From the IMG/VR virus record IMGVR_UViG_3300042519_001716: 64,000 nt of DNA, one strand, 5' to 3'. This document shows positions 1,197 to 48,094 of the stretch, piece after piece. A program made the translations under genes and the position numbers. The DNA comes from a virus. Its lineage: Duplodnaviria; Heunggongvirae; Uroviricota; Caudoviricetes. How positions within the stretch are numbered: position 1 is the first letter of the stretch; each line of letters begins with the position of its first letter. Below the pieces are notes generated by a model. It searched no databases, was not told the DNA's origin, and saw only the letters and a list, made by a program, of their open reading frames with translations.

Positions 1197-1250
1197 TAAA
1201 TTATTTGTAGTTTTACAAAATAAATTACTAACCAATTAAATTTAATTCAA

Positions 1251-1586
1251 ATGGAAAATTTACACAATGTCGATTTAGAATTTGTAATGGAAACCGCTGA
1301 GGGTTGTTCAGCACTAAAACCCGATGGGTTTGATGGTAGTAAGGATGGCTATGATAGAGCCGTAATCGGTATAACTGATAATGGCCAGTTAGTCTATTCA
1401 AAGGAATGGATGGTGCGCTTATTACTGGAAATGGATTATAAGAGCATAATGGAGGCCGAAGATAAAACGGACTTAGAACCGATGACTGAGGAGGAGGCTT
1501 GGGAATTTTTAGAATTCAATTGTTTCTGCGCATATGTTGGAGAGCAAACCCCTATCTTTGTTAATACATACGAAACTTTTAAATAA
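1251..1586 (+). CDS. hypothetical protein
   Basis: ORF track, 111 aa. Confidence 0.5.
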   Translation: MENLHNVDLEFVMETAEGCSALKPDGFDGSKDGYDRAVIGITDNGQLVYSKEWMVRLLLEMDYKSIMEAEDKTDLEPMTEEEAWEFLEFNCFCAYVGEQTPIFVNTYETFK

Positions 1587-1615
1587 ATTTATTTCAAACT
1601 TAAATTAAATCAATT

Positions 1616-1993
1616 ATGTCTACAATTATTAAATTAACCTACACGCAAACGGGTAGAACCACATTAGTGAATTTAGAGCAAGTAACTACTGCATTTAGAA
1701 TTTTTGAAAAGACCACGCAGAAATATGCTACCCGTGTTAATTTCCAAAACGATTCATTTTCAATTGTGAATGAAGACCTTCAAACTATTAAGGAGTTAGG
1801 AGAGAAAGCACTATCGGGAGAATATCAATCTAATGATTGGTCGGAAGAAGATGCTGGTGGCGGAGAAGACCTACACGATAGACTTCGTGAAGACTACAAT
1901 AATAATATGGGTGGTGGTTATCAACAACGACCATATCAAAATCAAAGGAGAGGAAATTATAATAATAACTATAATACTAATCAAAGATGGTAG
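1616..1993 (+). CDS. hypothetical protein with G/Q/N/Y/R-rich low-complexity C-terminal tail
   Basis: C-terminus GGGYQQRPYQNQRRGNYNNNYNTNQRW resembles RGG/QN-rich nucleic-acid-binding tails. Confidence 0.5.
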   Translation: MSTIIKLTYTQTGRTTLVNLEQVTTAFRIFEKTTQKYATRVNFQNDSFSIVNEDLQTIKELGEKALSGEYQSNDWSEEDAGGGEDLHDRLREDYNNNMGGGYQQRPYQNQRRGNYNNNYNTNQRW

Positions 1994-2188
1994 AAATGAT
2001 AAAAGAATTATATCAAGGCTCAAAAGACCTTTGGTATAATGACAGAAAAGAATTCTGGGAGATGTATGGTTCATTCGCTTTGGTAGTATTCTGGTTCATA
2101 ATAACTTGGTTCGTATTACTTCCATTAGTCGAAGGACTTTAAAATAGATTTATTTTGTTTTGTTTTTTTGGTTTGGTGATTTGTTAAA

Positions 2189-2226
2189 GGGGTGGGACTT
2201 CCCCCAGTTCCACCTTCTTTTTGTTT
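2189..2226 (+). terminator. Rho-independent terminator candidate (GGTGG..CCACC stem then TTCTTTTTGTTT)
   Basis: GC-rich hairpin followed by T-run downstream of the 1616..1993 gene. Confidence 0.45.
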
Positions 2227-2255
2227 AACCTTCCAGTAGTAAAAATAAAACAAAT

Positions 2256-2645
2256 GTGCATATGTGGAAAAACTTCATTATCTTTGCGAAGTTATTCACA
2301 AAAAATAAAATTCGTATGACAACAAAAAACACAAACAACCTTCCAGTCATCAAGAGATCACTTGGTGGGTTGAAGAAGTTACTGGCGGAGGATTTGAAAA
2401 GTGAGAGACATAAAATTAGGTTTAAACGCTATGGTAGTAAATATGTCATCACTAATAGTAATAGTGATCTGACCAGTAAGTTAGAAAGATCATTTAACTC
2501 ATTTATGAGTAAACTATCTGTTCATTCAGATGGAAAAAAATTACGTGGAATATGCTTCGTCGATAAAAATTCTGATGACTTCAGCGTTGGTTATCAGAAG
2601 GAAGGTGAATTCGTATTACACCAAATAAAAGGAAAGCTGGGTTAG
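2256..2645 (+). CDS. hypothetical basic protein
   Basis: ORF track, 129 aa, K/R-rich. Confidence 0.5.
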   Translation: MHMWKNFIIFAKLFTKNKIRMTTKNTNNLPVIKRSLGGLKKLLAEDLKSERHKIRFKRYGSKYVITNSNSDLTSKLERSFNSFMSKLSVHSDGKKLRGICFVDKNSDDFSVGYQKEGEFVLHQIKGKLG

Positions 2646-2662
2646 TAAAGGTTAGTTATCCT

Positions 2663-2699
2663 GAAGACGGGTTAGTCGTTTCTCCCGTCTTCTTTTTTA
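2663..2699 (+). terminator. Rho-independent terminator (GAAGACGGG-loop-CCCGTCTTC then TTTTTTAT)
   Basis: perfect 9-bp inverted repeat followed by T-run immediately after the 2256..2645 gene. Confidence 0.7.
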
Positions 2700-2771
2700 T
2701 TAAAAATTATTACAAAAAAATTTGTCTGGGATTAAAATAAGTTTATATTTGCAAAACAAAATAATAATCAT

Positions 2772-3431
2772 ATGCCAAACTGGTGCTGGAACAACTTAAT
2801 TATTTCGCCTTCAGATTCAGATGAATCTGGTGAAGGTATCAAAAGACTTCGTGCTAAACTTATGTTTATGCTTGAAGATATGACTGCGAATCCAAAGGTA
2901 TGGGGTGGTTCGTATGACTATCTGGTGGGCAGAGAAAATGATTGGGATGAGATAGATGGCTGGTACGAACATAACCTTCGTGTTTATGGAAGTAAGTGGC
3001 AGAAGTCTGCTGAGGATTTTATCGAGGCGATGGAAGATGATGGCGAATGCATTACTATGGGATTTCAATCTGCTTGGTCGCCTGTTGTTGGATTTACTAA
3101 ATTACTATCAAACCAGTACAGGCTACATATCGAGCATACATATGATGAAACTGGTGACTGGTTCGCAGGAAAGTTGGTTGTTGATTCTGGGGTGGTACTG
3201 GAAGAATTCTGTTTGGATTATTATGCAGGGACATATAAAATTGATGCAGATTTATTCTGGCACGAAATAAGAAGCAATATGGAATGCTGGGTAGAAGATG
3301 ATGAAGATGAAGCCAGAAGCCAATACGCCTCCACGCTGAAGCAACTGGATTTCTTATCACCAGAAGAATTAAAGCAACTGGATGATGAATTCAATGAAGC
3401 ACTCACAGATTATCAAAACGAAAACAAATAA
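2772..3431 (+). CDS. hypothetical acidic protein
   Basis: ORF track, 219 aa, D/E-rich; GC-richer codon usage than flanking DNA. Confidence 0.55.
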   Translation: MPNWCWNNLIISPSDSDESGEGIKRLRAKLMFMLEDMTANPKVWGGSYDYLVGRENDWDEIDGWYEHNLRVYGSKWQKSAEDFIEAMEDDGECITMGFQSAWSPVVGFTKLLSNQYRLHIEHTYDETGDWFAGKLVVDSGVVLEEFCLDYYAGTYKIDADLFWHEIRSNMECWVEDDEDEARSQYASTLKQLDFLSPEELKQLDDEFNEALTDYQNENK

Positions 3432-3440
3432 AACTATATG
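3421..3440 (+). promoter_or_regulatory. conserved early-gene upstream motif AAATAAAACTATATG (includes start codon)
   Basis: one of 6 or more near-identical copies immediately 5' of + strand genes. Confidence 0.5.
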
Positions 3441-3698
3441 GAAAATTTAGAAAGAGATTCTAAGATTGCTAACTTCAATAAGAAGTTAAAAGACATTCTA
3501 ATTGAACTGGCTGTTAATGATGAGCTACCATTGGATATGACCACGCTGGACTCCAGCGTTTTCGATCCCTGTACTACTCCGCTGGTCGATGCCCTGATTA
3601 CACTACAGGAGGATGCTGAATGGGCGTTGGATGATAGATGGGATAGAAGTGATGATGGCTTCAAAGCACAGATTGAATTAATCAACAGCGTAATTTAA
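3438..3698 (+). CDS. hypothetical protein
   Basis: ORF track, preceded by conserved motif. Confidence 0.5.
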   Translation: MENLERDSKIANFNKKLKDILIELAVNDELPLDMTTLDSSVFDPCTTPLVDALITLQEDAEWALDDRWDRSDDGFKAQIELINSVI

Positions 3699-3712
3699 AA
3701 TAAAACTATATG
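3694..3712 (+). promoter_or_regulatory. conserved motif TTTAAAATAAAACTATATG
   Basis: exact copy of the motif family ending in the ATG of gene 3710. Confidence 0.5.
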
Positions 3713-3952
3713 GAATTTATACCAGCCAGCGAAACGGCACGCAAAGAAGTACTGGATTATGCCAGACAGCAGATCAGAGTCTATGGCATTGATGTGGATT
3801 TACTACCTGATGAGTACAGAATCTCGGACAACCCTGAAGAATTTATTAAGGAAGCTGAAGCTCAGGGATTAGTATGGAGTCTCAAGGGCTTCGAGCTTCA
3901 GACTAACAATGACCAGATAAACTTCAATAATATATTCATTAAAATAATTTAA
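3710..3952 (+). CDS. hypothetical protein
   Basis: ORF track, 80 aa. Confidence 0.5.
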   Translation: MEFIPASETARKEVLDYARQQIRVYGIDVDLLPDEYRISDNPEEFIKEAEAQGLVWSLKGFELQTNNDQINFNNIFIKII

Positions 3953-3954
3953 TC

Positions 3955-4170
3955 ATGTCAGAAGAATCAAAATACTTTTTAACGGAGGTGCAATTGCATC
4001 ATATCGAATCCAACAAATGGACAGCAAAACCTAATGGAGCTTATGTAGATTTGTATCCTGAAGATTTTACTGGTGACGCGTGGAATCAAATATGTCAACA
4101 GCTGGAGATTCCAGTTGAATCAGGGTCAGCAACAATATTATACTTTGGTGTTAAAAATGAAACAATATGA
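3955..4170 (+). CDS. hypothetical protein
   Basis: ORF track, 71 aa. Confidence 0.45.
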   Translation: MSEESKYFLTEVQLHHIESNKWTAKPNGAYVDLYPEDFTGDAWNQICQQLEIPVESGSATILYFGVKNETI

Positions 4171-4478
4171 AATATAGAATCAATCAACATGACGAAATGG
4201 AATTCGATGTAATCGTCGAAGATGGTGGCGTGGTATCTGTTTACCATAATGATGAAAATCAGGTTAGCACGTATTACCAAGATAGGCTCACAGAAGATAT
4301 GAGTCCTGATGAGATCTGGGAGACTCTAGGCGAGGGAAAAGCCTATATAAAGGATTGGCCTGAAGGGACTACTAGAGAAGAGATTATTAAGGACGCATTG
4401 AACTGGCTCGTATTACCTGAACCAGAAAGCTGGGAGCTAGATGAAACTATCTGGAGCAAATTTGAATTGAGCTGGTAA
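4167..4478 (+). CDS. hypothetical acidic protein
   Basis: ORF track, ATGA overlap with upstream gene. Confidence 0.5.
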   Translation: MKYRINQHDEMEFDVIVEDGGVVSVYHNDENQVSTYYQDRLTEDMSPDEIWETLGEGKAYIKDWPEGTTREEIIKDALNWLVLPEPESWELDETIWSKFELSW

Positions 4479-4543
4479 CAAAAAAAATATTTTGTTAATT
4501 AAATAATTTTATTTATCTTCGCATACACAAAAAATATATAGTC

Positions 4544-5329
4544 ATGCATAAAAAATTTCTGTTTATGAATTACAAGACAAAAGCCGACGCAAAGCGTATT
4601 ACAGGCTTGAGCTATCTAGGTGGGATCAACACTAGCTCAAAGATCGCAAAAGGACTCAAGTATGACGAGATGACCTACATCCTTTATCTGGCTCCTGCTA
4701 AATCTAGCGGCTACGAGGTTTGCCCTATGCGCAGCAAAGAATGCACAGCTGCCTGCTTAAATGAGAGCGGGCATAACAGAATCGATATTCATGATAATAC
4801 AATTAATAAGGCGCGTATTACCAAGACGAAGTTATTTTTTGAGAATCGTCCTTTCTTTATGGGCTGGCTTATCGATGAGATCAGAAGCGCGCAGCGTAAA
4901 GCAATTGCAGCTGGCAAGAACTTCAGCGTGCGCCTGAACGGTACTAGTGACTTAAGCCCTGAACAGTTTCACCTGGATGGCAAAAACATCCTGGAGCTGT
5001 TCCCAGATGTACAGTTCTATGATTATACTAAAGTCTTCAAGCGTATACAGCTCGCGAAAAAATACAGTAACTATGATTTGACTTTTAGCTTCAGCGGAAA
5101 TAATATTGCTGAGTCACTGTTGGCCCTTGAGCAGGAGATCAGAGTAGCTGTAGTATTTGAAGAGGTTCCTGCACAGTACTGGGGCGTCCAGGTCGTTGAC
5201 GGCGATGCATATGATATGAGATATCAAGATCCAGGGAAGGTCGTGATCGGCCTGAAGTATAAGAAGGTGAGAAATAAAATAGATTTATCTAAAAGTAAAT
5301 TTATTGTTGCCAAAGAAAATATTTTGTAA
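4544..5329 (+). CDS. hypothetical protein with Cys cluster (CPMRSKECTAACL)
   Basis: ORF track, 261 aa, GC-richer composition; no family recognised with certainty. Confidence 0.5.
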   Translation: MHKKFLFMNYKTKADAKRITGLSYLGGINTSSKIAKGLKYDEMTYILYLAPAKSSGYEVCPMRSKECTAACLNESGHNRIDIHDNTINKARITKTKLFFENRPFFMGWLIDEIRSAQRKAIAAGKNFSVRLNGTSDLSPEQFHLDGKNILELFPDVQFYDYTKVFKRIQLAKKYSNYDLTFSFSGNNIAESLLALEQEIRVAVVFEEVPAQYWGVQVVDGDAYDMRYQDPGKVVIGLKYKKVRNKIDLSKSKFIVAKENIL

Positions 5330-5352
5330 CATTGTAAAAAAAAAAACACACT

Positions 5353-5694
5353 ATGGATTATGTAATGGAAATTTCTAGAATGCGCGATACTCTCCATAAG
5401 GAGATTATCCTTACAATGATAACAGATAACCGTCTGGAGAAAGACGAATACCTGATAACATTTAATCGCCCAGTTGAGTGCACGGTAATATATTATAGGC
5501 CAACAATACATGAGGGCACTGAAAATGTTATTATAACTGGAATTGACGGCGTATCAAATGAATTGATGGCAGTTAACGAAGACCATAATGATCGTTTTGT
5601 TTTTTACAGCGATCTCAGGATGGAAGATCTAGCCCTGATTCATAGAATAGTAATGACAAAAAATTATACAATAAAACAATTTCAATTATGTTAG
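5353..5694 (+). CDS. hypothetical protein
   Basis: ORF track, 113 aa. Confidence 0.5.
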   Translation: MDYVMEISRMRDTLHKEIILTMITDNRLEKDEYLITFNRPVECTVIYYRPTIHEGTENVIITGIDGVSNELMAVNEDHNDRFVFYSDLRMEDLALIHRIVMTKNYTIKQFQLC

Positions 5695-6074
5695 AACAGC
5701 TATCAACGCTAGTGAGAAAGCCGAGTAAAATTGATGAGGCGGAGCTAGATAAAATCGGATGGACATCCAGGCGCAATAAGGTCCTGGATTATATGGATCG
5801 GGACCAGGTATTACAAAGGCTCCTGGCGGATTTTAAAATCGTTAATGATCACCTAAAGCAGATAAGATCTACCAGGGATGTAAAGATCTATTATACAGAA
5901 CTTGAAAAAGCTGGCACGTACTACACGTACGCCAGATGCATCTTCAATGTTAACGGTAAGCAAACAGAATTCAGGAAGTACCTGGGAAAGAGCGACGATT
6001 TAAAACCAGGTGACATTGACGAAGACTTTTTAAAACAAATCTTTTTAAAGAAGTTAAAAAATTTCTTGGTATAA
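5688..6074 (+). CDS. hypothetical protein
   Basis: ORF track, 128 aa, 7-nt overlap. Confidence 0.5.
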   Translation: MLEQLSTLVRKPSKIDEAELDKIGWTSRRNKVLDYMDRDQVLQRLLADFKIVNDHLKQIRSTRDVKIYYTELEKAGTYYTYARCIFNVNGKQTEFRKYLGKSDDLKPGDIDEDFLKQIFLKKLKNFLV

Positions 6075-6115
6075 TCAACCAGGTTTATTACTTTTACAAT
6101 CTAATCTAAAAAACA

Positions 6116-6325
6116 ATGGAACCATATAAAGTAAAAGCAAATGAAGAATTTTTTACCAATGTTATCCATGTACTACGCGAAGGCGGCGTATGGGGTTGGC
6201 CTGATGCGGCGGTCCTGTTTACGAAGCGTGGAGATAAATTAATTGGTAATGAAATCGCAAACAGGGAAGCAAAGAAAATTGTTAGCGAAGAATTTTTTAA
6301 CAAGCACTTTGAAGTTTTAAAATAA
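6116..6325 (+). CDS. hypothetical protein
   Basis: ORF track, 69 aa. Confidence 0.45.
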   Translation: MEPYKVKANEEFFTNVIHVLREGGVWGWPDAAVLFTKRGDKLIGNEIANREAKKIVSEEFFNKHFEVLK

Positions 6326-6334
6326 AACTATATG
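6315..6334 (+). promoter_or_regulatory. conserved motif TTTTAAAATAAAACTATATG
   Basis: motif copy ending in ATG of gene 6332. Confidence 0.5.
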
Positions 6335-6730
6335 AAATCAATTAAAGTTAGATTTAACCTGGCAGCCGGTAAGAATTATATGACCTGGAAGATTGACATT
6401 CCAGGACAGCCGGCTAGGTATGTAAACCCGGATGCTGTACAGCTGCGTATGACGGGCTGCACAATTAAGAACCAGAAATCAACAGCTAGCAAGATTCACC
6501 AGGGCGCGCACAAAAGCGTATGTGCCTGGATTCTCTGCAACGAGATCAGCATCCTGGCAGATCTGGATGGGCCAAGTATTACACAGCTAAAAAATTATGA
6601 GCAGCTGTCATATAATCCCCGCGTGCAGCCCAACTGGTTATGCGGGGGACAGAATGTGGACAATGAATCGTATGACAACATTGTTAGTATGGGGAAAACT
6701 TTATTTGTGGAATTAAAAAACATTTCTTAA
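6332..6730 (+). CDS. hypothetical protein
   Basis: ORF track, 132 aa. Confidence 0.5.
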   Translation: MKSIKVRFNLAAGKNYMTWKIDIPGQPARYVNPDAVQLRMTGCTIKNQKSTASKIHQGAHKSVCAWILCNEISILADLDGPSITQLKNYEQLSYNPRVQPNWLCGGQNVDNESYDNIVSMGKTLFVELKNIS

Positions 6731-6751
6731 TATTACAAAAAAAATAAAACA

Positions 6752-7018
6752 ATGGAAAAAGTAGCAAAGTACAAAGCGGCTGCGCAAAGATGGGCAGCAA
6801 GATGGAAAGTTGAGGAGCAACACGCAATAGATGTTGCAGCATCAATATTGATGACTCGTGATAAAGTTATGATGGGCGGTAGCTTCGCTCAAGCGATTGT
6901 AGATAATAATCTGCGTGAAGCTATTAACCGAGCGGATGATACTTGTATCAAGTATTTAAAGTTCTTCAGCATCATCAACTATAACTGTGGTAGTTATGAA
7001 ATCGAAAACGGACAATAA
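6752..7018 (+). CDS. hypothetical protein
   Basis: ORF track, 88 aa. Confidence 0.5.
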   Translation: MEKVAKYKAAAQRWAARWKVEEQHAIDVAASILMTRDKVMMGGSFAQAIVDNNLREAINRADDTCIKYLKFFSIINYNCGSYEIENGQ

Positions 7019-7019
7019 G

Positions 7020-7193
7020 ATGACTAAGAATCAAATCGAACAAAAGATTGGGGAGTTGAAATCATTAAAGCTCCCACAATTAAATAAGCGAAGCAAAGCT
7101 CACCACGACTGGAAGCTGGAGATGGAGAAGCTAACTAGTTTACTGGATGGAGAAATTAATAAGATGAATAACCTTTTAAATAAAACTATATGA
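7020..7193 (+). CDS. hypothetical small coiled-coil protein (start moved to internal ATG right after upstream stop)
   Basis: track ORF 6987..7193 begins at a GTG inside the upstream gene; ATG at 7020 lies 1 nt after the upstream TAA. Confidence 0.4.
   Translation: MTKNQIEQKIGELKSLKLPQLNKRSKAHHDWKLEMEKLTSLLDGEINKMNNLLNKTI
7174..7192 (+). promoter_or_regulatory. conserved motif TTTTAAATAAAACTATATG
   Basis: motif copy ending in ATG of gene 7190. Confidence 0.5.
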
Positions 7194-7417
7194 AAGCTCT
7201 AACAAAAGGAGAACTAATGGATTTCTGGGTGAAGTATGCATATGACAAGCGAGGTGTATGGGACAACGACCCAAGCAAACCCCTGCGCACAGATACTTGG
7301 TGCGATTATCTTTATGATAACTACTGGGAGATTATGCGATTGCAGGGACTCACCAGAAACGATGTCTTCTACGGGATGAGATTCCCAATCAACAGATTTA
7401 AAAAGAATTTAAAATAG
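7190..7417 (+). CDS. hypothetical protein
   Basis: ORF track, 75 aa. Confidence 0.5.
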   Translation: MKALTKGELMDFWVKYAYDKRGVWDNDPSKPLRTDTWCDYLYDNYWEIMRLQGLTRNDVFYGMRFPINRFKKNLK

Positions 7418-7423
7418 ATTTAT

Positions 7424-7741
7424 ATGAAAGCTATATTCATTGATGCAAAAAATCGTCAGGTATCCATTATTGAGAATAAGGGACAGCTGGAAGACAAATA
7501 CTTAATCCTGAAGGTCGACATGGTGGAGATTGGTTTTTACTGGGAGAATGGAGATACTCTATGGGTTGATGAGGAAGGATTAATTAACGGAACCGATTAT
7601 GGATTTCAACTGGAAGGTAGAGAGTTCATGGGCAACGGCTTAATCTACGGGACTAATGTTGAGAACCCTGAATTATGTGATTCCGCCGTTACTCCATTAA
7701 AAGATATCAAAATTAAATTCTTCACCTTAATACCAGCATAA
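7424..7741 (+). CDS. hypothetical protein
   Basis: ORF track, 105 aa, preceded by motif variant TTTAAAATAGATTTATATG. Confidence 0.5.
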   Translation: MKAIFIDAKNRQVSIIENKGQLEDKYLILKVDMVEIGFYWENGDTLWVDEEGLINGTDYGFQLEGREFMGNGLIYGTNVENPELCDSAVTPLKDIKIKFFTLIPA

Positions 7742-8157
7742 TGGCAACACCACTTATACACGCACAGTCCTCTGTCAAGAAATGGAGAGGATGTACAGAC
7801 GACTATGTATCCATCCATGCCAAGATGGATTGCAGCAAGAAGTATTTTCCTGATAACAGGCACAGGCTGCTAACGCATAATATGTTCTTTATCTTTGAGG
7901 TAATCATTCCCCTGTATGGTGAATATATAGTTAACTCGGATGGTAGAAGCGTAAGCGTTAAAGATATCTGCGAGCTTCACATCCTGGAGGATTATCATAT
8001 GAAGTATATCCCGACGCCGCAAGACTGGCTGGAAAACTTGCAGCTCAAGCCCTGGATGAATAACGGCCTGGGAGAAGCACCATCATCCGCCAAGCTACGC
8101 TTCCCAGATGGAATAGTTAGAACAGAAACAAAAACAGTTAGAGAATATATTGATTAA
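7741..8157 (+). CDS. hypothetical protein
   Basis: ORF track, 138 aa. Confidence 0.5.
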   Translation: MATPLIHAQSSVKKWRGCTDDYVSIHAKMDCSKKYFPDNRHRLLTHNMFFIFEVIIPLYGEYIVNSDGRSVSVKDICELHILEDYHMKYIPTPQDWLENLQLKPWMNNGLGEAPSSAKLRFPDGIVRTETKTVREYID

Positions 8158-8175
8158 CCCATAAACCTTATTATT

Positions 8176-8628
8176 ATGTCTGAAATAAAAAAAACAAAAA
8201 GAGAAACAATCGCTCAACTAGCAGAAAAGTTCCCTGGTGTCGCCACATTTGAAGTCGCTTATCAGGGCGCAGGTGATAACTTTGATTCATTCTTTGATTT
8301 CATAATGAAAGATTCAGCAGGTAATGAAATTGAATCATCACAAACTGATGAGGATAGTTTTTTAACCATTGCTGATGATTACATATGGCACATATTTGAC
8401 AAAGCGCAGAGCCAGCCAGATTTTAATAACGACGGCTCGGAAGGTAAAGTTATCTTTGATATGATAAACAAAGTTGTTATCCTGGAAGTAACCTACCTGG
8501 AAGATGTAACCCCAGATTATGACGGTGATGAAGACGACCCAGACTATGATGAGAAGCGTGATGAGTACTGGGATAATATGGATGAAAGGGACTGGGAATA
8601 TCATGTCCAGAAGCCTGAAGAATTCTAA
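8176..8628 (+). CDS. hypothetical strongly acidic protein (DNA-mimic / Ocr-like candidate)
   Basis: 150 aa with dense D/E runs (DYDGDEDDPDYDEKRDEYWDNMDERDWEY); early-region location. Confidence 0.5.
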   Translation: MSEIKKTKRETIAQLAEKFPGVATFEVAYQGAGDNFDSFFDFIMKDSAGNEIESSQTDEDSFLTIADDYIWHIFDKAQSQPDFNNDGSEGKVIFDMINKVVILEVTYLEDVTPDYDGDEDDPDYDEKRDEYWDNMDERDWEYHVQKPEEF

Positions 8629-8645
8629 TCCGCCAGTCGGGCTAG

Positions 8646-8690
8646 CTCCCGCTTGTGCTGCAAGCTTGCGCAGCGGGATCACACTTTTTA
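8646..8690 (+). terminator. Rho-independent terminator candidate (CCCGCT..AGCGGG hairpin with internal GCAAGCTTGC palindrome, then CTTTTTAAT)
   Basis: GC-rich inverted repeat plus T-run directly after the 8176..8628 gene. Confidence 0.5.
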
Positions 8691-8692
8691 AT

Positions 8693-8715
8693 CTTAAATA
8701 AAACTATTTCAAATG
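8693..8715 (+). promoter_or_regulatory. motif variant CTTAAATAAAACTATTTCAAATG
   Basis: variant of the conserved upstream motif, ends in ATG of gene 8713. Confidence 0.4.
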
Positions 8716-8967
8716 GAAGATAGATCATTTAGAGTTGTATGGGAGATCGATGTAGATGCTCCTGATGCAAGGACAGCTGCTGTCCAAGCACATGACAGTG
8801 TCATCAACGGGCTAGCTTCAGTATACGAAATTCATGAGTGGGACCAGCCGGATATGATTACCGCAACCCCGGTTGCGATGATTGATGTGAAGGAACCGGA
8901 TGCCGATCTACCGGTCCCAGACAGAAGGATCTTTAACGAAAACTACATGGGCCCCACAATTATTTAA
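8713..8967 (+). CDS. hypothetical protein
   Basis: ORF track, 84 aa. Confidence 0.5.
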   Translation: MEDRSFRVVWEIDVDAPDARTAAVQAHDSVINGLASVYEIHEWDQPDMITATPVAMIDVKEPDADLPVPDRRIFNENYMGPTII

Positions 8968-8979
8968 GGGACCTAATCA

Positions 8980-8998
8980 TTTAAAATAAAACTATATG
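8980..8998 (+). promoter_or_regulatory. conserved motif TTTAAAATAAAACTATATG
   Basis: exact motif copy ending in ATG of gene 8996. Confidence 0.5.
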
Positions 8999-9184
8999 AA
9001 TCCTCAAATCTTAAAGCTATGGATAGAGTCAAGAAGATCTCATGTCCAGTATTGTCAAGCAATTGGTATTAAATTTACCGAACAAGAAGCTAACGCCATC
9101 CTCAGCATCCTGAACGAACTGGAAGAAGACTTCAACCTGGAGCTATACGCAAAGGAAGAATATCAATTCCAAAATAATTTTTGA
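8996..9184 (+). CDS. hypothetical protein
   Basis: ORF track, 62 aa. Confidence 0.45.
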   Translation: MNPQILKLWIESRRSHVQYCQAIGIKFTEQEANAILSILNELEEDFNLELYAKEEYQFQNNF

Positions 9185-9230
9185 TTTTAAGAAAATATTC
9201 TTAACTTCACTAAAATAAAAAAACACTCGT

Positions 9231-9788
9231 ATGACAGAAGTTATTAACCTATCAAGCAATGTTATTGTTAGCGACCCTTGCTACAGTAGACCAACCTGGT
9301 GCCAAACAGTACTAACAGATGTATTACCTGGAAGATATATTTCCCAGGTGAATGAAGATCCTGAAACCGACAGGTGTGCTGAGCTACTCGTCATACACGA
9401 GGATTATTACCAGAAGCATCTAGACTATGTCGATCATTCAAGCTGCGGGGTTGACAGTGGGCAGCTGGGGATCTTTGATGCCGCGTCATACAGAAACGAT
9501 GCTGCAGCTGCAGGTATCTCAACGCCGCGTATTAAATTCTCTGTTGCAGGTGATTACCAGGACGGTGACGCCTGGTATGAAAAGATGTGTAAGATCACCT
9601 TGGGTGAGCCACTTCGGTATGGAGCGTATGACACAGGTGTGGTTTCCTCAAGCGGATGGGGAGATGGAATGTACCCGCTGCAGGTGGCCAGAAATGATGG
9701 CGGCCAGATTGTTGGAATGCTGGTAACATTCATTGACCTTGAGGACGAAGATGAGGATGACTTCCTGATGGACGATGATGAAGATTAA
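9231..9788 (+). CDS. hypothetical protein with acidic C-terminal tail (DLEDEDEDDFLMDDDED)
   Basis: ORF track, 185 aa. Confidence 0.5.
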   Translation: MTEVINLSSNVIVSDPCYSRPTWCQTVLTDVLPGRYISQVNEDPETDRCAELLVIHEDYYQKHLDYVDHSSCGVDSGQLGIFDAASYRNDAAAAGISTPRIKFSVAGDYQDGDAWYEKMCKITLGEPLRYGAYDTGVVSSSGWGDGMYPLQVARNDGGQIVGMLVTFIDLEDEDEDDFLMDDDED

Positions 9789-9872
9789 ATAAAACTATTT
9801 CAAAATATATTTGCCCCAGATTTTTTTGTTCCAGTTTTTTTCCTTATATTTTATTATAAATTAATAAATGAT

Positions 9873-10055
9873 ATGAAAAAAACAAAAGCAACTCAGTCCC
9901 AGCCCCTGACCTATTCGTCAGTGGCACCAAACATTTACTTCGACGGTACTAGTTACCGTGTAAGAATGATTCTAAACGGAGAGCGCTACAGCAAGAACTT
10001 AACTTCTAAGCGTGCTGCAGTAATGTACCGTAACTCACTTCTTAAGACAGCTTAA
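9873..10055 (+). CDS. small basic protein, possible arm-type/AP2-like DNA-binding domain
   Basis: IYFDGTSYRVRMILNGERYSKNLTSKRAAVMYRNSL resembles integrase N-terminal DNA-binding folds; weak. Confidence 0.35.
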   Translation: MKKTKATQSQPLTYSSVAPNIYFDGTSYRVRMILNGERYSKNLTSKRAAVMYRNSLLKTA

Positions 10056-10081
10056 TAAGCTTCCTGGTATAGGTTTGTTCA

Positions 10082-10117
10082 AAAGGGGACCTGAGGAATC
10101 GGATCCCCTTTTTTTAA
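10082..10117 (+). terminator. Rho-independent terminator (AAAAGGGGA..TCCCCTTTTTTT)
   Basis: inverted repeat plus T-run directly after the 9873..10055 gene. Confidence 0.7.
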
Positions 10118-10129
10118 TATTTATATAAC

Positions 10130-10858
10130 ATGAGAGAACAAAACGAACCAACAAAACTATCCATTACCGGCAAGACGCTAGCGGGACTAGCCGGCCAGGT
10201 ATTCAAAGATGGCCCATATGAATATAGAATATACGTGAAGACCGGCGAGCTTGGAGACTCGACAATCGTATCCATATCCATCTTCATCGAGAACACTCCT
10301 CCGCATGTAGGTGTGGACCTGTACCTAATGGCCCTAAAACGTGTGGCCGAAGTGGCCGGCGATCACATAGAAAATTCAGAATGGATGATCAATAAGGTAA
10401 TCATAGAACAATATGAAGCCCTGGGTGAAATGACCCCAATGGTCACCGGACAAAGATCAAACATATTCGGGCTCCAATCATATAGAAGCCTCGAAGAGAA
10501 AATTAGAACCAATCTAACAAAATCAATTAACTTTCAACAAGTAAACGATATTATAGATGTTAGAAAAAGAAAGCTAACCAAGGTTCTTAACTATATGCAG
10601 AAAACACTACCAACATATAAGCAACCTCTTAACATAACTTACACCATATCTGGTGAAGTAAAAAGACACAACGAAGAAATCCTGGCTCCAAGTATTAAAG
10701 CAGATATCAATGTCACCATGGTAGAAAAACCAAAAGCAAGCGATCACACCGCAAGAGTAATTATAGACGCTATAAAAGATAGTATATATGAAATGATAGA
10801 AGATCTATCACCCATAGACATCCACTCGTATGACAACATTACAATAAAAGTATCATAA
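10130..10858 (+). CDS. hypothetical protein
   Basis: ORF track, 242 aa, GC-richer composition. Confidence 0.55.
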   Translation: MREQNEPTKLSITGKTLAGLAGQVFKDGPYEYRIYVKTGELGDSTIVSISIFIENTPPHVGVDLYLMALKRVAEVAGDHIENSEWMINKVIIEQYEALGEMTPMVTGQRSNIFGLQSYRSLEEKIRTNLTKSINFQQVNDIIDVRKRKLTKVLNYMQKTLPTYKQPLNITYTISGEVKRHNEEILAPSIKADINVTMVEKPKASDHTARVIIDAIKDSIYEMIEDLSPIDIHSYDNITIKVS

Positions 10859-10866
10859 GATGCTCG

Positions 10867-11151
10867 GACCAGTACCATACTGGTCCTCGCCGTATGACGC
10901 CCAGACTAACCCTCTGGGTTTTTTTATGCGTCTATCTTATGACCGCGTATGACTGGCCCACTGTATGACGGTCCAGCAGCGAGCCGGTCAGTATAGTACT
11001 GACTGGCGAGCATTCTAAATAAAACTATTTTAAAATTGCGTATGACACGCCAGGACATATATGCTCGCCCAGTACCATACTGGGCTCGTCCTGCGGAGCC
11101 GTATGACATCCCCTTATTTATGCACAATATATCCCCTCTTTTATGCACAAT
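10867..11151. repeat. noncoding iteron/inverted-repeat cluster: five GTATGAC boxes, three CAGTA-N3-TACTG palindromes, 2x ATCCCCTYWTTTATGCACAAT direct repeat
   Basis: GTATGAC at 10892, 10947, 10963, 11040, 11101; palindromes at 10867-10886, 10984-11006, 11067-11085; direct repeats at 11108-11128 and 11131-11151; only shadow ORFs present. Confidence 0.6.
10900..10927 (+). terminator. Rho-independent terminator (CCCAGA-loop-TCTGGG then TTTTTTTAT)
   Basis: 6-bp stem plus 7-T run after the last + strand early gene. Confidence 0.6.
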
Positions 11152-11350
11152 TAAATCGGCCCGTAATACACCGGACGCGCGCAAGCAGGCGAGCCCTCGA
11201 TCCCCTTTATGGGAGAGGGCGAGATCATATAAAACTGTTTAAATTCCAAATTATTTTTTTTGTGGGTCGTGAGTCACACAAGGTACACTTCCTGGAGAGT
11301 TCCCACTTATCCCCATTTTCTCCCACTTTTTGCGATTGTAATACAGCTAG

Positions 11351-11376
11351 CCAAAAAAAGTGCCCCTAGTGGGGCT
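11351..11376 (-). terminator. Rho-independent terminator on - strand (GCCCC-ACTA-GGGGC then TTTTTTT)
   Basis: stem-loop plus T-run read on the reverse strand, downstream of the leftward HNH gene. Confidence 0.5.
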
Positions 11377-11542
11377 TGTATCGCTATAAAATCAGCTACG
11401 ATGGAATCAGTACCTAAAATGGCAGTATTATACACATATATTTGCATAAATATGGACTTTTTGGCATGTTTCTATTGTGCAGATTTTAGACCATTTATTG
11501 TGCCAAATCCGGAAGTAAAAACGCGCCAAACCAGGAAGTTAG

Positions 11543-11596
11543 TGTTCACAAAATACTGTTGTTCACGGATCGTGAACAGAGAACAAACGTGAACAT
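11543..11596. promoter_or_regulatory. operator-like nested dyad: TGTTCACA-N9-TGTTCACG-GAT-CGTGAACA-N10-CGTGAACA
   Basis: perfect 8-3-8 palindrome at 11560-11578 flanked by two further half-sites in mirrored orientation. Confidence 0.5.
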
Positions 11597-11640
11597 ATAG
11601 GGCTCGCAATCTCTCGATTGCTCGCTGCGAAGCAGGTAGT

Positions 11641-21035: not shown

Positions 21036-21941
21036 TTATTTGTTTAAGAATCTTGTAAAAAGATCTTCTGTATCTTTACAGAAATAATACTTCTCTGGTT
21101 GTTTACTACCCTTCATTACTCCCCATCTACCAGCATTATAATAAAAGATATACATCTTTCCTTTGTATTTGAATGTGGCCTTTGCTGGTTCATCCAATAC
21201 AATCATTGAGATAATGTCATATTCAGATAAGAATCCCTCAATAACCTTCTTAGTGTGATTAAATTTATCTTCGAACGTTTTGGGATCGTGACTAACTTCT
21301 TTGTTGCTCTTAAATTCTTTAGGTACCGGCTTAAAGTCTTCCTCATTAATATATCTAGAGACTTTTGAAATAGTTTTATTTGTTCTTAGTTGATCAATAC
21401 TTTCTTTGATGATGGGGTCTTCAGCAAAGTCACATAACTTATATAGGATCTGAGCCTCATCTAATGCATCTGGTAATGCCCTATGTTTCTCCACATAGTT
21501 TCTATCCTGCATCAACCACCTATATACATTCTCTTCCTTGAGACTTATTTCCTCGTCAAGAAGAACTTTAGCATATTCGCTAGCGGTTTCCATTAAACAT
21601 TTGCTTTCTTTGTACCTGAAACCAAGACTAGATAACCACCCCATATCAAATCTCTTGTTATATGCTGTTACCTTGTACTTGTCTAGTATGGCTTGAATCT
21701 CGGCTCTATATGTGTTAATGTCTTGAGCACGTTCGACATCTCTGAATTTCAAATCAGAATGATCAAATATCCAGGATCTCTTATGATAATCACTGAGTGT
21801 GCTTTCCCTAACAATGTTATTGAACAGAATCTCAGTTTTTCTGGTCTCTGTGTCGCATAAAACTATTGCAAGTTCAACTATAGAATTGTTTTTTTCCCTA
21901 ACAAATCCTGTAGTTTCAATGTCAATAATAGCTAATTTCAT
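21036..21941 (-). CDS. DEDDh 3'-5' exonuclease (DnaQ-like) with C-terminal extension
   Basis: LAIIDIETTGF Exo I motif and HRALPDALDEAQ Exo III motif. Confidence 0.7.
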   Translation of the reverse strand: MKLAIIDIETTGFVREKNNSIVELAIVLCDTETRKTEILFNNIVRESTLSDYHKRSWIFDHSDLKFRDVERAQDINTYRAEIQAILDKYKVTAYNKRFDMGWLSSLGFRYKESKCLMETASEYAKVLLDEEISLKEENVYRWLMQDRNYVEKHRALPDALDEAQILYKLCDFAEDPIIKESIDQLRTNKTISKVSRYINEEDFKPVPKEFKSNKEVSHDPKTFEDKFNHTKKVIEGFLSEYDIISMIVLDEPAKATFKYKGKMYIFYYNAGRWGVMKGSKQPEKYYFCKDTEDLFTRFLNK

Positions 21942-46192: not shown

Positions 46193-48094
46193 CTAAAATT
46201 CTCGTTCATTGTCAAAGAGCATTCGGTATATAGCGTCTTGTTCCCTTTCTTTTATTTCAATTGTTTTACCGTTTATAACCAATGGTATTTTTTCTTTACC
46301 GGTTGATTTGATTGACCCACGATATGTTTCAATTCTATGTTTAAGTTTTTCAATGATCACTTCAAATCGTTCTGGTGGTTTTGCGTTACAATAATATTTG
46401 GCTTGAACCATTTTCTTTTGTAAATCGAATTCACAAGTTACTCTCTCATGACCTTCACTAGATTTCTCTCTGATTGATATAATAATACTATTATCTCTAT
46501 CAGCATATGTTGCAACACAATGATGCATGTGCGCACCTTCTTCAGTATATTCTGAATCGCTCTTAAGGATAACCGGATAAAAATCCTCACCATCTATAAG
46601 ATTAACCATTGATGGTTTAATAACGCTCTCAACATGTTTAATTAACTTATTGTCAAATGTGTATTGAATAGTATATCCTTTCTTTATTGATCTATCAATC
46701 TTGGATAATTCTAGGTGTTCATGATGAAAATCCATAAGTCCATTGCATTTGATTTCCATTTCAGGGATATGAACCCTGATCTTCGTTATTAAATCTAAAT
46801 GATCATTAAACTGTCTGATTTGATGTTTTATTGTTTGTGAATCATTCATTGCTGGTGATGAAATATTTATATCATTAAAAAACTCATTAATTAATTTTAA
46901 TAATACCGATCTTTCTGAATCTCTGATATCATATTCAAATTTATCATTTAAAATGGAGTACATTGATTCTATGTGATTTTGATCATCATATAAAATCCAA
47001 CTATTATCGAAATAGTAAGGAGATAAATTATGAATATACTTGTGTACGTTTGAATACCCAAAATACTTACCAAGCAGCGTCAGTTTACATAAATCTAATT
47101 TTGGGTTACTATGAAGTAATTTAATTAATGATTTAGTTTTAAGTCCCATTCTATCTAAAATAGAAACAACTAATTTATTATCATTGTTTTTTAAGTACTT
47201 TTTTGTTGGGTACCATCTTAAGATTAGATCCTCATAGTTGTTGGGAACTTTTATTTTATTAACCTGGATAAACAATTTAAGAAACCCTTTGTATGCGAAA
47301 TCAGTAATAGTTTTAGGGTCTACAAAATAACGTGAGTCTAGTTGTTGTGTTTTTGACGAAATGGTATGAAATAATATCTTGTTAAATTCAGAATCAACAA
47401 ATTGATTCAAGAATAACTCATTGATTTTGTCTGTGCGTCTAGGTTTAGATGTGGGGTTAAGAAACGAAAAATCATAAGTACACGCATTGGTTTCTTTTAA
47501 AAACTCCTTTAATATTTCTTGTAGATAAATAAAACTATTTTGTCTAATTTTCATTATATTCTTATCGCCACGGTATATAATAATATTACCTGTTTTTAAG
47601 TTCATGGTAACACCCATAGAATAAGTGCTCTTTCTAAAATATTTACAATTTAAATCTCGATACTTTTCAAAACGGCAAAATCTAATAGATATTTTTTCAT
47701 CAGACATACTGATGTTCCTCTCAAGTATTGTTGTTTTGACCTTAGCAAATGGGTCACCATAATATTTTTTTAATTTAGTTTCATCTTGTGTGTAGAACGT
47801 GCCGAGCCAATATAATTGAACCTTATCATCAGGTAAATCATCATCACAATAAAAAAACTTGGTATTTTTCTTTTTACTTCCTTTTTTATTATGTAAAAAC
47901 AATGTATCAGGAGTGGAAACCCGTTTTGATGTTATTGTTTCATCTAAAAAGAGAAATAGATCATCAATACCCGTTGTTTCTAATTGAATTGACGCCACTT
48001 TTTCTTTCTCCGGTCTAGATGATAAGGTGGAATAATCCCTATATAATGTGATTTCAAAGAAGTTAAATCTTTGTTTTAAGATGTTATTTACCAT
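46193..48094 (-). CDS. large hypothetical protein, paralog A (EEGAHMHHCVATY putative metal-binding motif)
   Basis: 633 aa; WYPTKKYLKNNDNKLVVSILDRMGLKTKSLIKLL shared block with paralog B. Confidence 0.55.
   Translation of the reverse strand: MVNNILKQRFNFFEITLYRDYSTLSSRPEKEKVASIQLETTGIDDLFLFLDETITSKRVSTPDTLFLHNKKGSKKKNTKFFYCDDDLPDDKVQLYWLGTFYTQDETKLKKYYGDPFAKVKTTILERNISMSDEKISIRFCRFEKYRDLNCKYFRKSTYSMGVTMNLKTGNIIIYRGDKNIMKIRQNSFIYLQEILKEFLKETNACTYDFSFLNPTSKPRRTDKINELFLNQFVDSEFNKILFHTISSKTQQLDSRYFVDPKTITDFAYKGFLKLFIQVNKIKVPNNYEDLILRWYPTKKYLKNNDNKLVVSILDRMGLKTKSLIKLLHSNPKLDLCKLTLLGKYFGYSNVHKYIHNLSPYYFDNSWILYDDQNHIESMYSILNDKFEYDIRDSERSVLLKLINEFFNDINISSPAMNDSQTIKHQIRQFNDHLDLITKIRVHIPEMEIKCNGLMDFHHEHLELSKIDRSIKKGYTIQYTFDNKLIKHVESVIKPSMVNLIDGEDFYPVILKSDSEYTEEGAHMHHCVATYADRDNSIIISIREKSSEGHERVTCEFDLQKKMVQAKYYCNAKPPERFEVIIEKLKHRIETYRGSIKSTGKEKIPLVINGKTIEIKEREQDAIYRMLFDNEREF

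Follow-up and report, generated by a model that had tools for sequence, protein, structure and literature searches.

A repeated A/T-rich element at the stop/start junctions of small early genes in an uncultured Bacteroidota-type phage

A repeat at gene junctions of the early block

The window, that is, the whole 64,000-nt stretch of phage DNA analysed here, carries an A/T-rich repeat of 12-19 bases where one small early gene stops and the next starts. We counted its core, AAATAAAACTAT, and a longer form, TTTAAAATAAAACTATATG (the 19-mer), against chance expectation. The core occurs in 10 exact copies where 0.09 would be expected, which bears out a previous sequence-only reading that had noticed near-identical repeats at early-gene starts. 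Eight of these copies lie on the + strand within a small-gene block at 3.4-11.0 kb (3426, 3698, 6320, 7178, 8696, 8984, 9787, and 11017), all in a single orientation, and the 19-mer has six matches at ≤3 mismatches in the window against 0.29 expected, including exact copies at 3694, 6316, and 8980, one with a single mismatch at 7174 and one with three at 7408. That the motif was confined to the + strand early block was nearly right, the exceptions being two exact 12-mers that are probably incidental, one (21370..21381, - strand) in frame within a DnaQ-like exonuclease gene (..TNKTISK..) and the other (47527..47538, + strand) antisense within a PcfJ-like gene (46193-48094, - strand). The repeat contains two TAAAA cores and has A at positions -6, -12, and -13, and its core is a partial palindrome (AAATA-N4-TATTT).

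Five copies lead directly into the ATG of an open reading frame (3438, 3710, 6332, 7190, and 8996) as AAATAAAACTATATG, the core fused to ATG; a sixth start previously counted with them, 8713, is reached only through 6 extra bases. Seven copies or variants terminate at an ORF ATG or 6 nt short of it, and in six cases the stop codon belonging to the upstream gene falls inside the repeat. The ATG codons that follow the repeat are true starts, with coding-type conservation directly downstream and stop codons just upstream. The first copy (AAATAAAACTATATG, 3426..3440, + strand), described before as near-identical over 3424-3440, does end in the ATG (3438) of an 86-aa gene but matches the 19-mer over no more than its last 15 bases; it contains the stop TAA (3429-3431) of gene 2772-3431, and its junction is kept at the orthologous position in the relatives L124, L165, and L247. 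The exact 19-mer at 3694..3712 (+ strand) contains the stop TAA (3696-3698) of gene 3438-3698 and ends in ATG 3710 of an 80-aa gene, and that at 6316..6334 (+ strand) contains the stop TAA (6323-6325) of gene 6116-6325 and ends in ATG 6332 of a 132-aa gene; the latter junction is kept with one change in L121 and L122, at 77-79% amino acid identity, and shows 0 mismatches to L124 over 6315-6362. The third exact 19-mer (8980..8998, + strand) ends in ATG 8996 of a 62-aa gene, with the upstream stop (8965-8967) outside the repeat. At 7174..7192 (+ strand), the 19-mer with one mismatch (TTTTAAAT...) joins ORF 7020-7193 to ATG 7190; the mismatch abolishes the first TAA, so that the upstream ORF runs through the repeat into an ATGA overlap with that start, and the L124 counterpart has one extra A, with which the upstream gene stops at the second TAA.

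Other copies are less regular. The variant TTTAAAATAGATTTATATG (7408..7426, + strand), identical in L124 and L248, contains a stop TAG (7415-7417) and ends in ATG 7424 of a 105-aa DUF3846 gene. In the long-spacer form CTTAAATAAAACTATTTCAAATG (8693..8715, + strand), the core at 8696 is followed by 6 nt (CTATTTCAAATG) and then ATG 8713. Degenerate copies are found at ATG 6752 (AAAAATAAAACAATG, 6739..6754, + strand), where the L124 orthologue reads AAATAAAACTATG, and, with a long spacer, at ATG 5688 (ATAAAACAATTTCAATTATG, 5669..5690, + strand). The variant TTTAAAATAGATTTATTTTG (2139..2158, + strand) lies where gene 1987-2142 ends (stop TAA 2140-2142) and is followed by a terminator hairpin (2189-2216). 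Two more variants of the earlier reading, near 9785 and 11024, do hold exact cores (9787 and 11017), although without a usable start codon downstream. The former, TTAAATAAAACTATTTCAAAA, contains the stop TAA (9786-9788) of gene 9231-9788, is not fused to a start codon and runs directly into a -7 box, TATATTTG (9806-9813), the whole spanning 9785..9813 (+ strand). The latter, CTAAATAAAACTATTTTAAAAT (11014..11035, + strand), conserved in L124, stands alone in non-coding DNA past the final + strand gene, and ATG 11041 behind it opens no frame; its core lies at 11017-11028, not at 11024-11050 as first given.

Translation signals and host type

The phage is of Bacteroidota type, a host type hinted at by the TAnnTTTG -7 boxes of the window and by a diverged relative binned with a Sediminibacterium MAG. 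The starts of its early block have neither a Shine-Dalgarno signal nor a G-rich peak (G ≤0.07 at -17 to -4), and A reaches 0.85 at -13 and -12. Initiation in F. johnsoniae is stimulated by A-3, A-6, A-12, and A-13 (Baez et al. 2019, PMC6847099), and the non-SD core of Flavobacterium, TAAAAA, which precedes the start of first as well as internal genes by ~7 nt, “cannot be a promoter” (Lomsadze et al. 2018, PMC6028130). The low G content and these Flavobacterium-type A-rich determinants uphold the earlier view of a translation-initiation region in a host without Shine-Dalgarno use. Like the A-rich region of Bacteroidota (PMC6847099, PMC6028130), the phage repeat places a TAAAA(A) core a few bases before the start and A at -6, -12, and -13, and precedes internal cistrons as well as first genes. 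However, cells show a loose bias in composition, with A favoured at -3, whereas the repeat is an exact 12-19-mer, conserved about tenfold better than the start regions around it, with T at that position. Predicted RNA accessibility is 0.58 at repeat starts and 0.58 at other starts.

Conservation and cassette boundaries among relatives

Compared with L124, repeat-bearing starts diverge by 2.2% at -20..-1 and by 8.7% at +1..+30, and are at background further upstream, a footprint that fits a ribosome site and not a promoter. Other starts diverge by 19% at -20..-1, which is the background rate; the repeat is thus, as previously proposed, more conserved than an ordinary ribosome-binding region. 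Since ordinary starts drift at background, generic ribosome loading can do without an exact sequence, and the constancy of the copies must be due to something more specific, the candidates being short-homology cassette exchange or a putative sequence-specific factor. In L165, whose genes reach no more than 40-75% identity, 24 repeat positions show 0 mismatches. The window, L124, L165, L247, and L248 have kept the repeat, which is loose in the sub-lineage L121-L123, where orthologous genes have much looser junctions. The spacing between core and ATG ranges from 1 to 10 nt.

Homology blocks shared with L124 start or end exactly at 3426, 3708, 8696 (where a block begins), and 9788, and at the 3694..3712 copy homology ends inside the repeat, at 3708 with L124 and at 3702 with L121. 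The 8980..8998 cassette, repeat plus gene, is missing entirely from L124, and gene 3438, flanked by two copies in the window, L124, L247, and L165, is absent from L248, where a single copy links its two neighbours. Amino acid identity to L124 varies from 45% to 99% per gene. Breakpoints were not significantly enriched at the repeat over gene boundaries generally (4 of 10 versus about 3 expected). The orthologues of 4167, 8176, and 6752 are preceded by the repeat in one relative but by another kind of start region in a second one, and for this reason the suggestion that it marks a co-regulated gene set looks doubtful from the sequence comparison.

The 19-mer in other genomes

The 19-mer had 121 matches in bacterial genomes. 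Of these, 70 were dropped because they are antisense to a single conserved gene, and among the 51 that remained, 22 are gene starts. In 3 of these 22, a TAnnTTTG box ends 3 nt before the 19-mer, which therefore constitutes essentially the whole 5'UTR of those cellular Bacteroidota genes. Among nine independent contexts in IMG/VR, most of them without detectable homology to the window, six are gene starts, and in four of the six the upstream ORF also stops within the 19-mer. Another group of GP88-bearing contigs carries a different start-fused consensus, AATTAATCAAnAAAAATAAAAGTTATG, in 6-17 copies at ≤1 mismatch.

A proposed start-associated element acting on the mRNA

We consider it somewhat probable that the repeat is a start-associated gene-junction element acting at the mRNA level, a shared ribosome landing site as well as a cassette seam, and not a promoter. 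This reading draws on its observed position, strand, stop/start anatomy, composition, conservation, and cassette boundaries, and on the 19-mer serving as 5'UTR or junction elsewhere. Ordinary host-type promoters would produce polycistronic early transcripts carrying the repeat, in which TTTAAAATAAAACTAT(ATG) would give the upstream gene stop codons in two reading frames and then offer the next gene an unstructured A-rich ribosome-loading site, with its two TAAAA cores and A at -6, -12, and -13, the start being chosen in the manner of Bacteroidota ribosomes, which make no use of Shine-Dalgarno sequences. Within 6-11 nt, a ribosome would either finish one gene and initiate again or be newly recruited, and the repeat may in this way enhance or couple translation. 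With the same 12-19 bases at both ends of many small genes, it would also provide a seam for the gain, loss, and exchange of cassettes between related phages via short-homology recombination, which may actually occur within the repeat; such exchange and selection acting on the start region would jointly maintain the identity of the copies. Weighing against this reading are the background-rate drift of ordinary starts, the T at -3, an RNA accessibility no higher than elsewhere, the copies at 9787 and 11017 that lack a start codon, the looser junctions of L121-L123, and the absence of a significant excess of breakpoints at the repeat.

It is very improbable that the repeat is instead a phage-specific promoter, used by a phage-modified host or phage polymerase to give each small gene a leaderless or very short-leadered mRNA. 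Phage promoters typically show such high identity between copies, those copies that have no start codon (9787 and 11017) would make sense, and the relatives are found on contigs of 115-281 kb, a size range where certain phages carry polymerase genes of their own. CTATA, which precedes the start and resembles positions -5..-1 of T7 and SP6 promoters, also speaks for a promoter. So does TATG, the core of the phiKZ late promoter (PMC4666361). Nevertheless, the promoter, sigma or activator site that the sequence-only reading had joined to the initiation region finds no support, as the repeat lacks a bipartite structure and comparison with relatives revealed neither a conserved block nor a -33/-35 partner upstream of the 19 bases. 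Moreover, since the ATG is a real start codon, transcription starting inside or after the repeat would remove it: a phiKZ-type start at G or a T7-type start after CTATA would lose the AUG, and only a leaderless start exactly at the A would work. The variable spacing between core and ATG also argues against a promoter, and so do the upstream genes that end in or run through the repeat, in operons with host-type promoters of their own. One such promoter, a Bacteroidota -7 box (TATATTTG, 2744..2751, + strand) with a -33 TTG, heads the operon of the first two repeat-fused genes, separate from the repeat; further TAnnTTTG boxes lie at 2279-2286 and 9806-9813, a degenerate one (TATCTTCG) at ~4513, and others in L035 at ~2851 and ~5122. 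In cellular genes the 19-mer sits downstream of canonical -7 boxes, a sigma-70-type scan showed no enrichment (49 hits versus 40 expected), and the 64 kb yielded no RNA polymerase, sigma or RegA-like protein. In other phage contigs, promoters that are genuinely repeated have two parts and stand at a clear distance upstream of gene starts, the ATG following 9-17 nt past the end of the repeat in L067 and a -7 box 17 nt downstream of it in L041. A promoter role is not supported, given that the repeat abuts a verified start codon, often holds the upstream stop and is separate from the TAnnTTTG promoters heading the operons.

Two other explanations were considered. The repeat could be the operator of a sequence-specific trans-acting factor defining a regulon switched together, either a phage-encoded RNA-binding translational repressor or activator covering the start codon, like T4 RegA on early mRNAs, or a DNA-binding repressor on oriented intergenic sites, like the stoperators of mycobacteriophage L5. 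We regard this as unlikely, although several observations agree with it: conservation beyond what a start region needs (2.2% versus 19%, and the invariance in L165), upkeep in certain lineages, as expected if only some had the factor, the single orientation within the block, the partial palindrome, reverse-complement-like copies adjoining -7 boxes at L035 2841 and window 9787-9813, and the alternative consensus of the other GP88-bearing contigs, which looks like a site co-evolving with a lineage-specific partner. Against it, no RegA-like, KH, S1, HTH or sigma domain was found in 28 early proteins and about 40 others, the 1 to 10 nt spacing is variable, the presence of the repeat at a gene in one relative and its absence in another would be odd for a regulon, and the 19-mer also occurs at cellular genes and in non-homologous phage contigs, which cannot share a phage factor. 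Quite unlikely, in turn, is that the repeat serves chiefly as a recombination linker and has no role in expression itself, persisting by inheritance among gene-exchanging phages. The homology blocks that begin and end at copies, the clean one-cassette difference in L248, the extreme mosaicism (45-99% per gene) and the copies at 9787 and 11017 without a start codon are all compatible with a linker, which would, however, need neither ATG fusion, fixed strand nor register with stop and start codons. In addition, the conserved footprint reaches the first ~30 coding bases, the composition agrees with known initiation determinants, twelve to nineteen bases are short for efficient homologous exchange, and breakpoints at the repeat do not exceed those at other gene boundaries.

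Comparison with known systems

The closest known analogue of the repeat is the Start-Associated Sequences (SAS) of Cluster K mycobacteriophages (Pope et al. 2011, PMC3203893; 2025 survey, PMC12699233). Both are short asymmetric repeats (13 bp in SAS, 12-19 here) in about 10-20 copies, in one orientation and limited to the non-structural gene region, a few bases from ATG start codons and at times holding the upstream stop codon; both accompany different gene families in different relatives, vary in abundance by sub-lineage and have a putative function. Their sequences are nevertheless unrelated, SAS (GGGATAGGAGCCC) having a Shine-Dalgarno core that the A/T-rich phage repeat lacks, the host phyla are not the same, the phage repeat is often fused to the ATG at zero spacing, and we saw no counterpart of the extended inverted-repeat companion (ESAS). 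In the PeSL cassettes of T4-type phages (Arbiol et al. 2010, PMC2839356), repeated regulatory motifs likewise flank small, variable early genes and mark points of cassette insertion, deletion, and swap, but they consist of a sigma-70-like promoter plus a terminator stem-loop, neither of which the phage repeat has. T4 RegA operators are similar as AU-rich sites overlapping the AUG of many early mRNAs, and L5 stoperators as 13-bp intergenic sites of fixed orientation close to stop and start codons, although no RegA homologue or repressor was found in the window. The L5 stoperators are further set apart from the phage repeat by their spread over early and late regions and by the role of the same sequence as the early-promoter operator.

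Gene junctions of the early block

The early block of the window (positions 1-11,000), made up of 28 small + strand genes of nearly all no known function, contains a short and asymmetric A/T-rich repeat of 12-19 bases, present in multiple copies with a single orientation. Its invariant 12-base core, AAATAAAACTAT, occurs 10 times in the whole window versus 0.09 expected, eight of them on the + strand of the early block, and its full 19-base form, TTTAAAATAAAACTATATG, has six matches with at most three mismatches versus 0.29 expected. These counts establish that the start-fused repeated element noticed in the sequence-only reading is real, with slightly corrected coordinates. The eight exact cores and their variants all lie on the + strand between 2.1 and 11.0 kb, a region of non-structural genes. 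Five copies are fused to the ATG of an open reading frame (ORF; genes 3438, 3710, 6332, 7190, and 8996), another has six more bases before ATG 8713, and the variant TTTAAAATAGATTTATATG is fused to ATG 7424, the spacing to the ATG being 0 nt in six copies and 6 nt in one (1-10 nt in relatives). Weaker relatives of the repeat precede 5688 and 6752, and two copies have no start codon behind them. An ORF starting at ATG 11041, behind the copy at 11017, was rejected because its frame is closed.

The ATG that follows the repeat is the true start codon, since stop codons closely precede it and coding-type conservation (MKSIKVRFNL / MKRIKVRFNL) sets in directly behind it. Besides being a gene start, the repeat forms a junction between two genes: the stop codon of the upstream gene falls inside it at 3429, 3696, 6323, 7415, and 9786, and the 19-mer supplies TAA in two reading frames. 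In copy 7174, a single mismatch removes the first TAA, so that the upstream ORF continues across the repeat as far as an ATGA overlap; in the counterpart of this copy in the related metagenomic locus L124, an extra A moves the upstream ORF onto the second TAA. Where a junction of the block lacks the repeat, the two genes mostly overlap (ATGA or TAATG) or are separated by 1-4 nt, and the repeat is therefore the spacer wherever the gap reaches 6-11 nt. We rejected -1 frameshifting on TTTAAAA, as the shifted frame meets a stop within 10 codons. A G+C-rich hairpin (CCCGCT...AGCGGG) at 8629-8690 separates gene 8176 from copy 8696; L124 lacks it at this position, which gives it the look of a small insertion, and its T-run lies 7 nt away, so it is not a canonical terminator.

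Conservation and cassette exchange among relatives

Its conservation sets the repeat apart from a generic start region. Compared with L124 (19% overall divergence), the window diverges by 2.2% at positions -20 to -1 of repeat-bearing starts versus 19% at other starts, and by 8.7% versus 25% at positions +1 to +30. At the 12-mer positions, L124 shows 5 mismatches out of 82 (15 expected) and the much more distant early-block relative L165 none out of 24 (7 expected). In the sub-lineage L121-L123 the exact form is lost (10/43 and 13/46 mismatches, equal to background) and all that remains is a loose TTTAAA(A)T[AT]AA...TATG pattern. The IMG/VR contigs L047-L054, a group sharing the GP88-family gene at 55-56% amino acid identity, have their own start-fused consensus, AATTAATCAAnAAAAATAAAAGTTATG, which precedes 6-17 genes per ~20 kb with at most one mismatch and carries stop codons in its TAATTAATCA part. 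Each lineage thus keeps its own uniform junction, which calls for either ongoing homogenization or a lineage-specific partner. In two related IMG/VR contigs, L029 (11734-11752) and L004 (2194-2212), the orthologue of the exonuclease-like gene 34949-35605 has the exact 19-mer fused to its start, while the window gene itself (- strand) has a start region of the ordinary kind; in relatives, the repeat thus also occurs beyond the small-gene block.

The repeat flanks variable small genes and coincides with end points of insertion, deletion, or replacement between relatives. Homology blocks shared by the window and L124 begin or end exactly at 3426, 3708, 8696, and 9788. Gene 3438 is flanked by two repeat copies in the window and in the relatives L124, L165, and L247; it is missing from a further relative, L248, where a single copy joins its neighbors. 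Likewise, the cassette formed by the repeat and gene 8996 is absent from L124. Identity to L124 ranges from 45% to 99% depending on the gene, some window genes being nearer to the other sub-lineage. Depending on the genome, orthologues of genes 4167, 8176, and 6752 bear either the repeat or another start region, which argues against a fixed regulon and makes the co-regulated gene set proposed for the repeat-bearing genes doubtful. No excess of breakpoints at the repeat over other gene boundaries could be demonstrated (4 of 10 versus ~3 expected); recombination within it is thus plausible although unproven, and a repeat acting purely as a recombination linker, devoid of any role in expression, seems rather improbable to us.

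Translation, transcription, and regulatory readings of the repeat

We consider it fairly probable that the repeat would be a start-associated junction, loading host ribosomes in a stop/restart manner and also providing a seam for cassette exchange. The regions upstream of early-block starts lack any G-rich Shine-Dalgarno peak (G at most 0.07 from -17 to -4) and are rich in A (up to 0.85 at -13 and -12). Initiation in Flavobacterium johnsoniae is stimulated by A at -3, -6, -12, and -13 (PMC6847099), and the core that GeneMarkS-2 detects in Flavobacterium is TAAAAA, located ~7 nt ahead of the gene, in first and internal cistrons alike (PMC6028130). With its TT-TAAAA-TAAAA-CTAT-ATG layout, TTTAAAATAAAACTATATG places A at -13 to -10 and at -8 to -5, matching the non-Shine-Dalgarno determinants at -6, -12, and -13 and the TAAAA core; it thereby shares with the Bacteroidota initiation region the A-rich TAAAA(A) core ~3-9 nt upstream, although the latter favors A at -3 whereas every ATG-fused copy has T there. 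The translation-initiation half of the sequence-only reading, in a host not using Shine-Dalgarno, is supported. Predicted RNA accessibility from -20 to +10 does not discriminate between starts that carry the repeat and those that lack it (0.58 either way).

The exact 19-mer also occurs beyond this phage. In IMG/VR, gene starts account for 6 of 9 independent contexts; the upstream ORF ends inside the 19-mer in 4 of them, and one junction is common to 22 large contigs without detectable homology to the window. Among bacterial genomes, 70 of 121 exact matches correspond to the antisense strand of a single conserved coding gene, mostly from Bacteroidota (loci L126-L244; sense ..AATGATAATCCATATAGTTTTATTTTAAATGAT.., ..NDNPYSFILND..), and the apparent enrichment of the 19-mer in Bacteroidota genomes, inflated by these matches, is largely an artefact. 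Of the 51 others, 22 are gene starts, three of them with a TAnnTTTG box whose end lies 3 nt upstream of the 19-mer, which is then essentially the whole 5'UTR. Its appearance as the start region of cellular genes implies that no phage factor is needed there.

Bacteroidota sigma-A promoters combine a -33 TTG and a -7 TAnnTTTG box ~19 nt apart, with transcription starting 4-5 nt past the latter. Canonical -7 boxes are found at 2279, 2744, and 9806, intergenic and apart from the repeat, together with a degenerate one at ~4513, two further ones in L035 (an upstream extension of the window), and terminator hairpins at 2189 and ~2672. Five of the seven ATG-associated copies lie at most 11 nt past the upstream stop codon, and no host-type -7 box separates these five from the nearest upstream promoter. 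The boxes and terminators indicate that the early block consists of a few operons under host-type promoters. The diverged relative L165 (40-75% amino acid identity in the early block) was binned with a Sediminibacterium MAG, a weak hint of a Chitinophagaceae host. A near-palindromic AAATA(A/G)TTTTATTTA element, common to the early host-type promoters directly upstream of the -7 box (window 4490-4520; L035 2830-2860 and 5105-5130), is similar to the junction repeat in reverse complement, and reverse-complement-like copies of the repeat adjoin -7 boxes at L035 2841 and window 9787-9813.

The other half of the sequence-only reading, an early or middle phage promoter, is not supported. Upstream of the 19 bases there is no conservation, either between copies or between orthologous junctions, a -33/-35 partner is absent, the repeat contains no Bacteroidota sigma-A box, a sigma-70-type promoter scan gave no enrichment (49 matches versus 40 expected), and no RNA polymerase or sigma factor was recognized in the 64-kb window with PHROG and Pfam. 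Transcription starting inside or after the repeat would delete the AUG, so that a promoter would be workable only as a leaderless start exactly at the A. Moreover, the distance from core to ATG differs in relatives (TAAAACT-ATG, TAAAACTAT-ATG, TAAAACTATTTAAAA-ATG), which looks like the behavior of a ribosome site, and the true promoter repeats of other phage contigs examined are bipartite and well upstream of the gene, as TTGG..N..TATCTTTG in L041 and TTGTAACC-N17-TATAAT in L067, where the ATG comes 9-17 nt past the repeat end. A leaderless-type phage promoter is thus highly improbable. T7-like single-subunit polymerases are phage-encoded and recognize promoters conserved over ~23 bp, from -17 to +6; here a CTATA likeness is the sole match, no such polymerase is found in the 64 kb, and a start after CTATA loses the AUG. 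The late promoter of the phiKZ-type non-virion polymerase is TATG, with G as +1 (PMC4666361), and the enzyme is encoded by split beta/beta' genes; we rejected this candidate too, since the G is the third base of the verified start codon, whose AUG a start there deletes, and no beta/beta' fragments were found within the 64-kb window.

The repeat might instead be the operator of a putative sequence-specific factor, a conceivable but unlikely alternative. In its most specific form, which we regard as a little more doubtful still, a putative phage-encoded regulator would sit on the start codons of a set of early mRNAs, forming a RegA-like translational switch evolved for non-Shine-Dalgarno hosts with lineage-specific pairs of site and factor (AAATAAAACTATATG here, AAAAATAAAAGTTATG in the other group). 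Among early genes, only 4167 is found in every repeat-rich locus and in none of the repeat-poor ones, a correlation drawn from about two lineages, and gene 7190 shares 99% identity with its L124 orthologue; neither product has a recognizable domain. T4 encodes its own RegA, whereas Pfam scans of all 28 early proteins detected no RegA-family member, and no repressor or integrase was identified in the window. In L5-type stoperators, the site also serves as the operator of the early promoter and is bound by the phage repressor. If a dedicated factor did bind the repeat, it would represent a new post-transcriptional switch.

Comparison with known start-associated repeats

The closest known elements are the Start-Associated Sequences of Cluster K mycobacteriophages, whose function is still unverified (PMC3203893; PMC12699233). 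They agree with the junction repeat in copy number, orientation, position, occasional inclusion of the upstream stop codon, association with variable genes, and variation between sub-lineages. Their consensus, GGGATAGGAGCCC, contains a Shine-Dalgarno core, whereas the repeat has another sequence and host, lacks such a core, and is accompanied by Bacteroidota-type signals; we therefore see it as an analogue of these sequences and not a member. PeSL cassettes likewise flank variable small genes at end points of insertion, deletion, or replacement, but they carry a strong promoter and a terminator stem-loop, while the repeat has neither hairpin nor promoter hexamers. Start-associated repeats, so far described in one mycobacteriophage group, thus also arise in an unrelated phage-host system, which suggests that phages have a general way to organize and shuffle small early genes. 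Operon-internal gene starts are only partly understood in Bacteroidota, which ignore Shine-Dalgarno sequences, and an exact natural element of 12-19 bases, better conserved than neighboring start regions, is a ready test object that could also serve as a portable translation part for Bacteroidota engineering.

Other elements of the window

With 33% G+C, the window is A/T-rich, and it resembles a portion of a large phage, or phage-like element, that is uncultured. It has no match among GenBank phages at the DNA level (megablast of the region) and no cultured relative or transcriptome on record; the near-identical sequences are metagenome contigs (L035-L040). PHROG and Pfam matches include a thymidylate synthase, three DnaQ-like exonuclease paralogues (21036, 29416, and 34949), HNH endonucleases, phosphoesterases, an M23-peptidase tape-measure-like protein, a B12 radical-SAM enzyme (15680-17818), and glycosyltransferases, clustered with epimerases at 52-61 kb. 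NifU-like, SAM-decarboxylase-like, ArdC-like, and PcfJ-like proteins are also encoded in 11600-64000, where no capsid, portal, or terminase was recognized among ~40 proteins tested. Relatives occur on contigs of 60-281 kb, so the window may be part of a large phage; extending past its end toward virion genes yielded only short contigs.

A second oriented repeat family, CGTATGAC, has 11 copies, all on the + strand of the early block (2313-11107; 0.72 expected), five of them clustered in non-coding 10827-11107 and two giving genes 2316 and 9231 their start context, tcgtATGACA, which is the same in relatives. Between the + and - gene blocks, ~800 bp of non-coding sequence (10860-11680; 86% identical in L124) contain the palindrome CCAGTACCATACTGG at 10869 and 11069, direct repeats ATCCCCT..TTTATGCACAAT at 11108 and 11131, GTTCAC/GTGAAC repeats at 11540-11600, and several long imperfect inverted repeats; this region could be an origin or control region. 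The conserved element TTCTTAATATTACAAAAAA precedes gene 6752 (6710-6746) and is found again, with 92-94% identity, ahead of other genes in relatives (L121 3550-3586; L122 7312-7347), including twice in L124 (10380-10420 and 10675-10707) before tandem paralogues; it may represent a weak -7-type promoter cassette. Immediately beyond the early block, the near-identical contigs L039 (11238-13575) and L035 (16776-18263) diverge: some of these contigs have a NUMOD4/HNH endonuclease gene (window 11686-12225), whose place is taken by other genes in L039, in what looks like a presence/absence polymorphism of a homing endonuclease.
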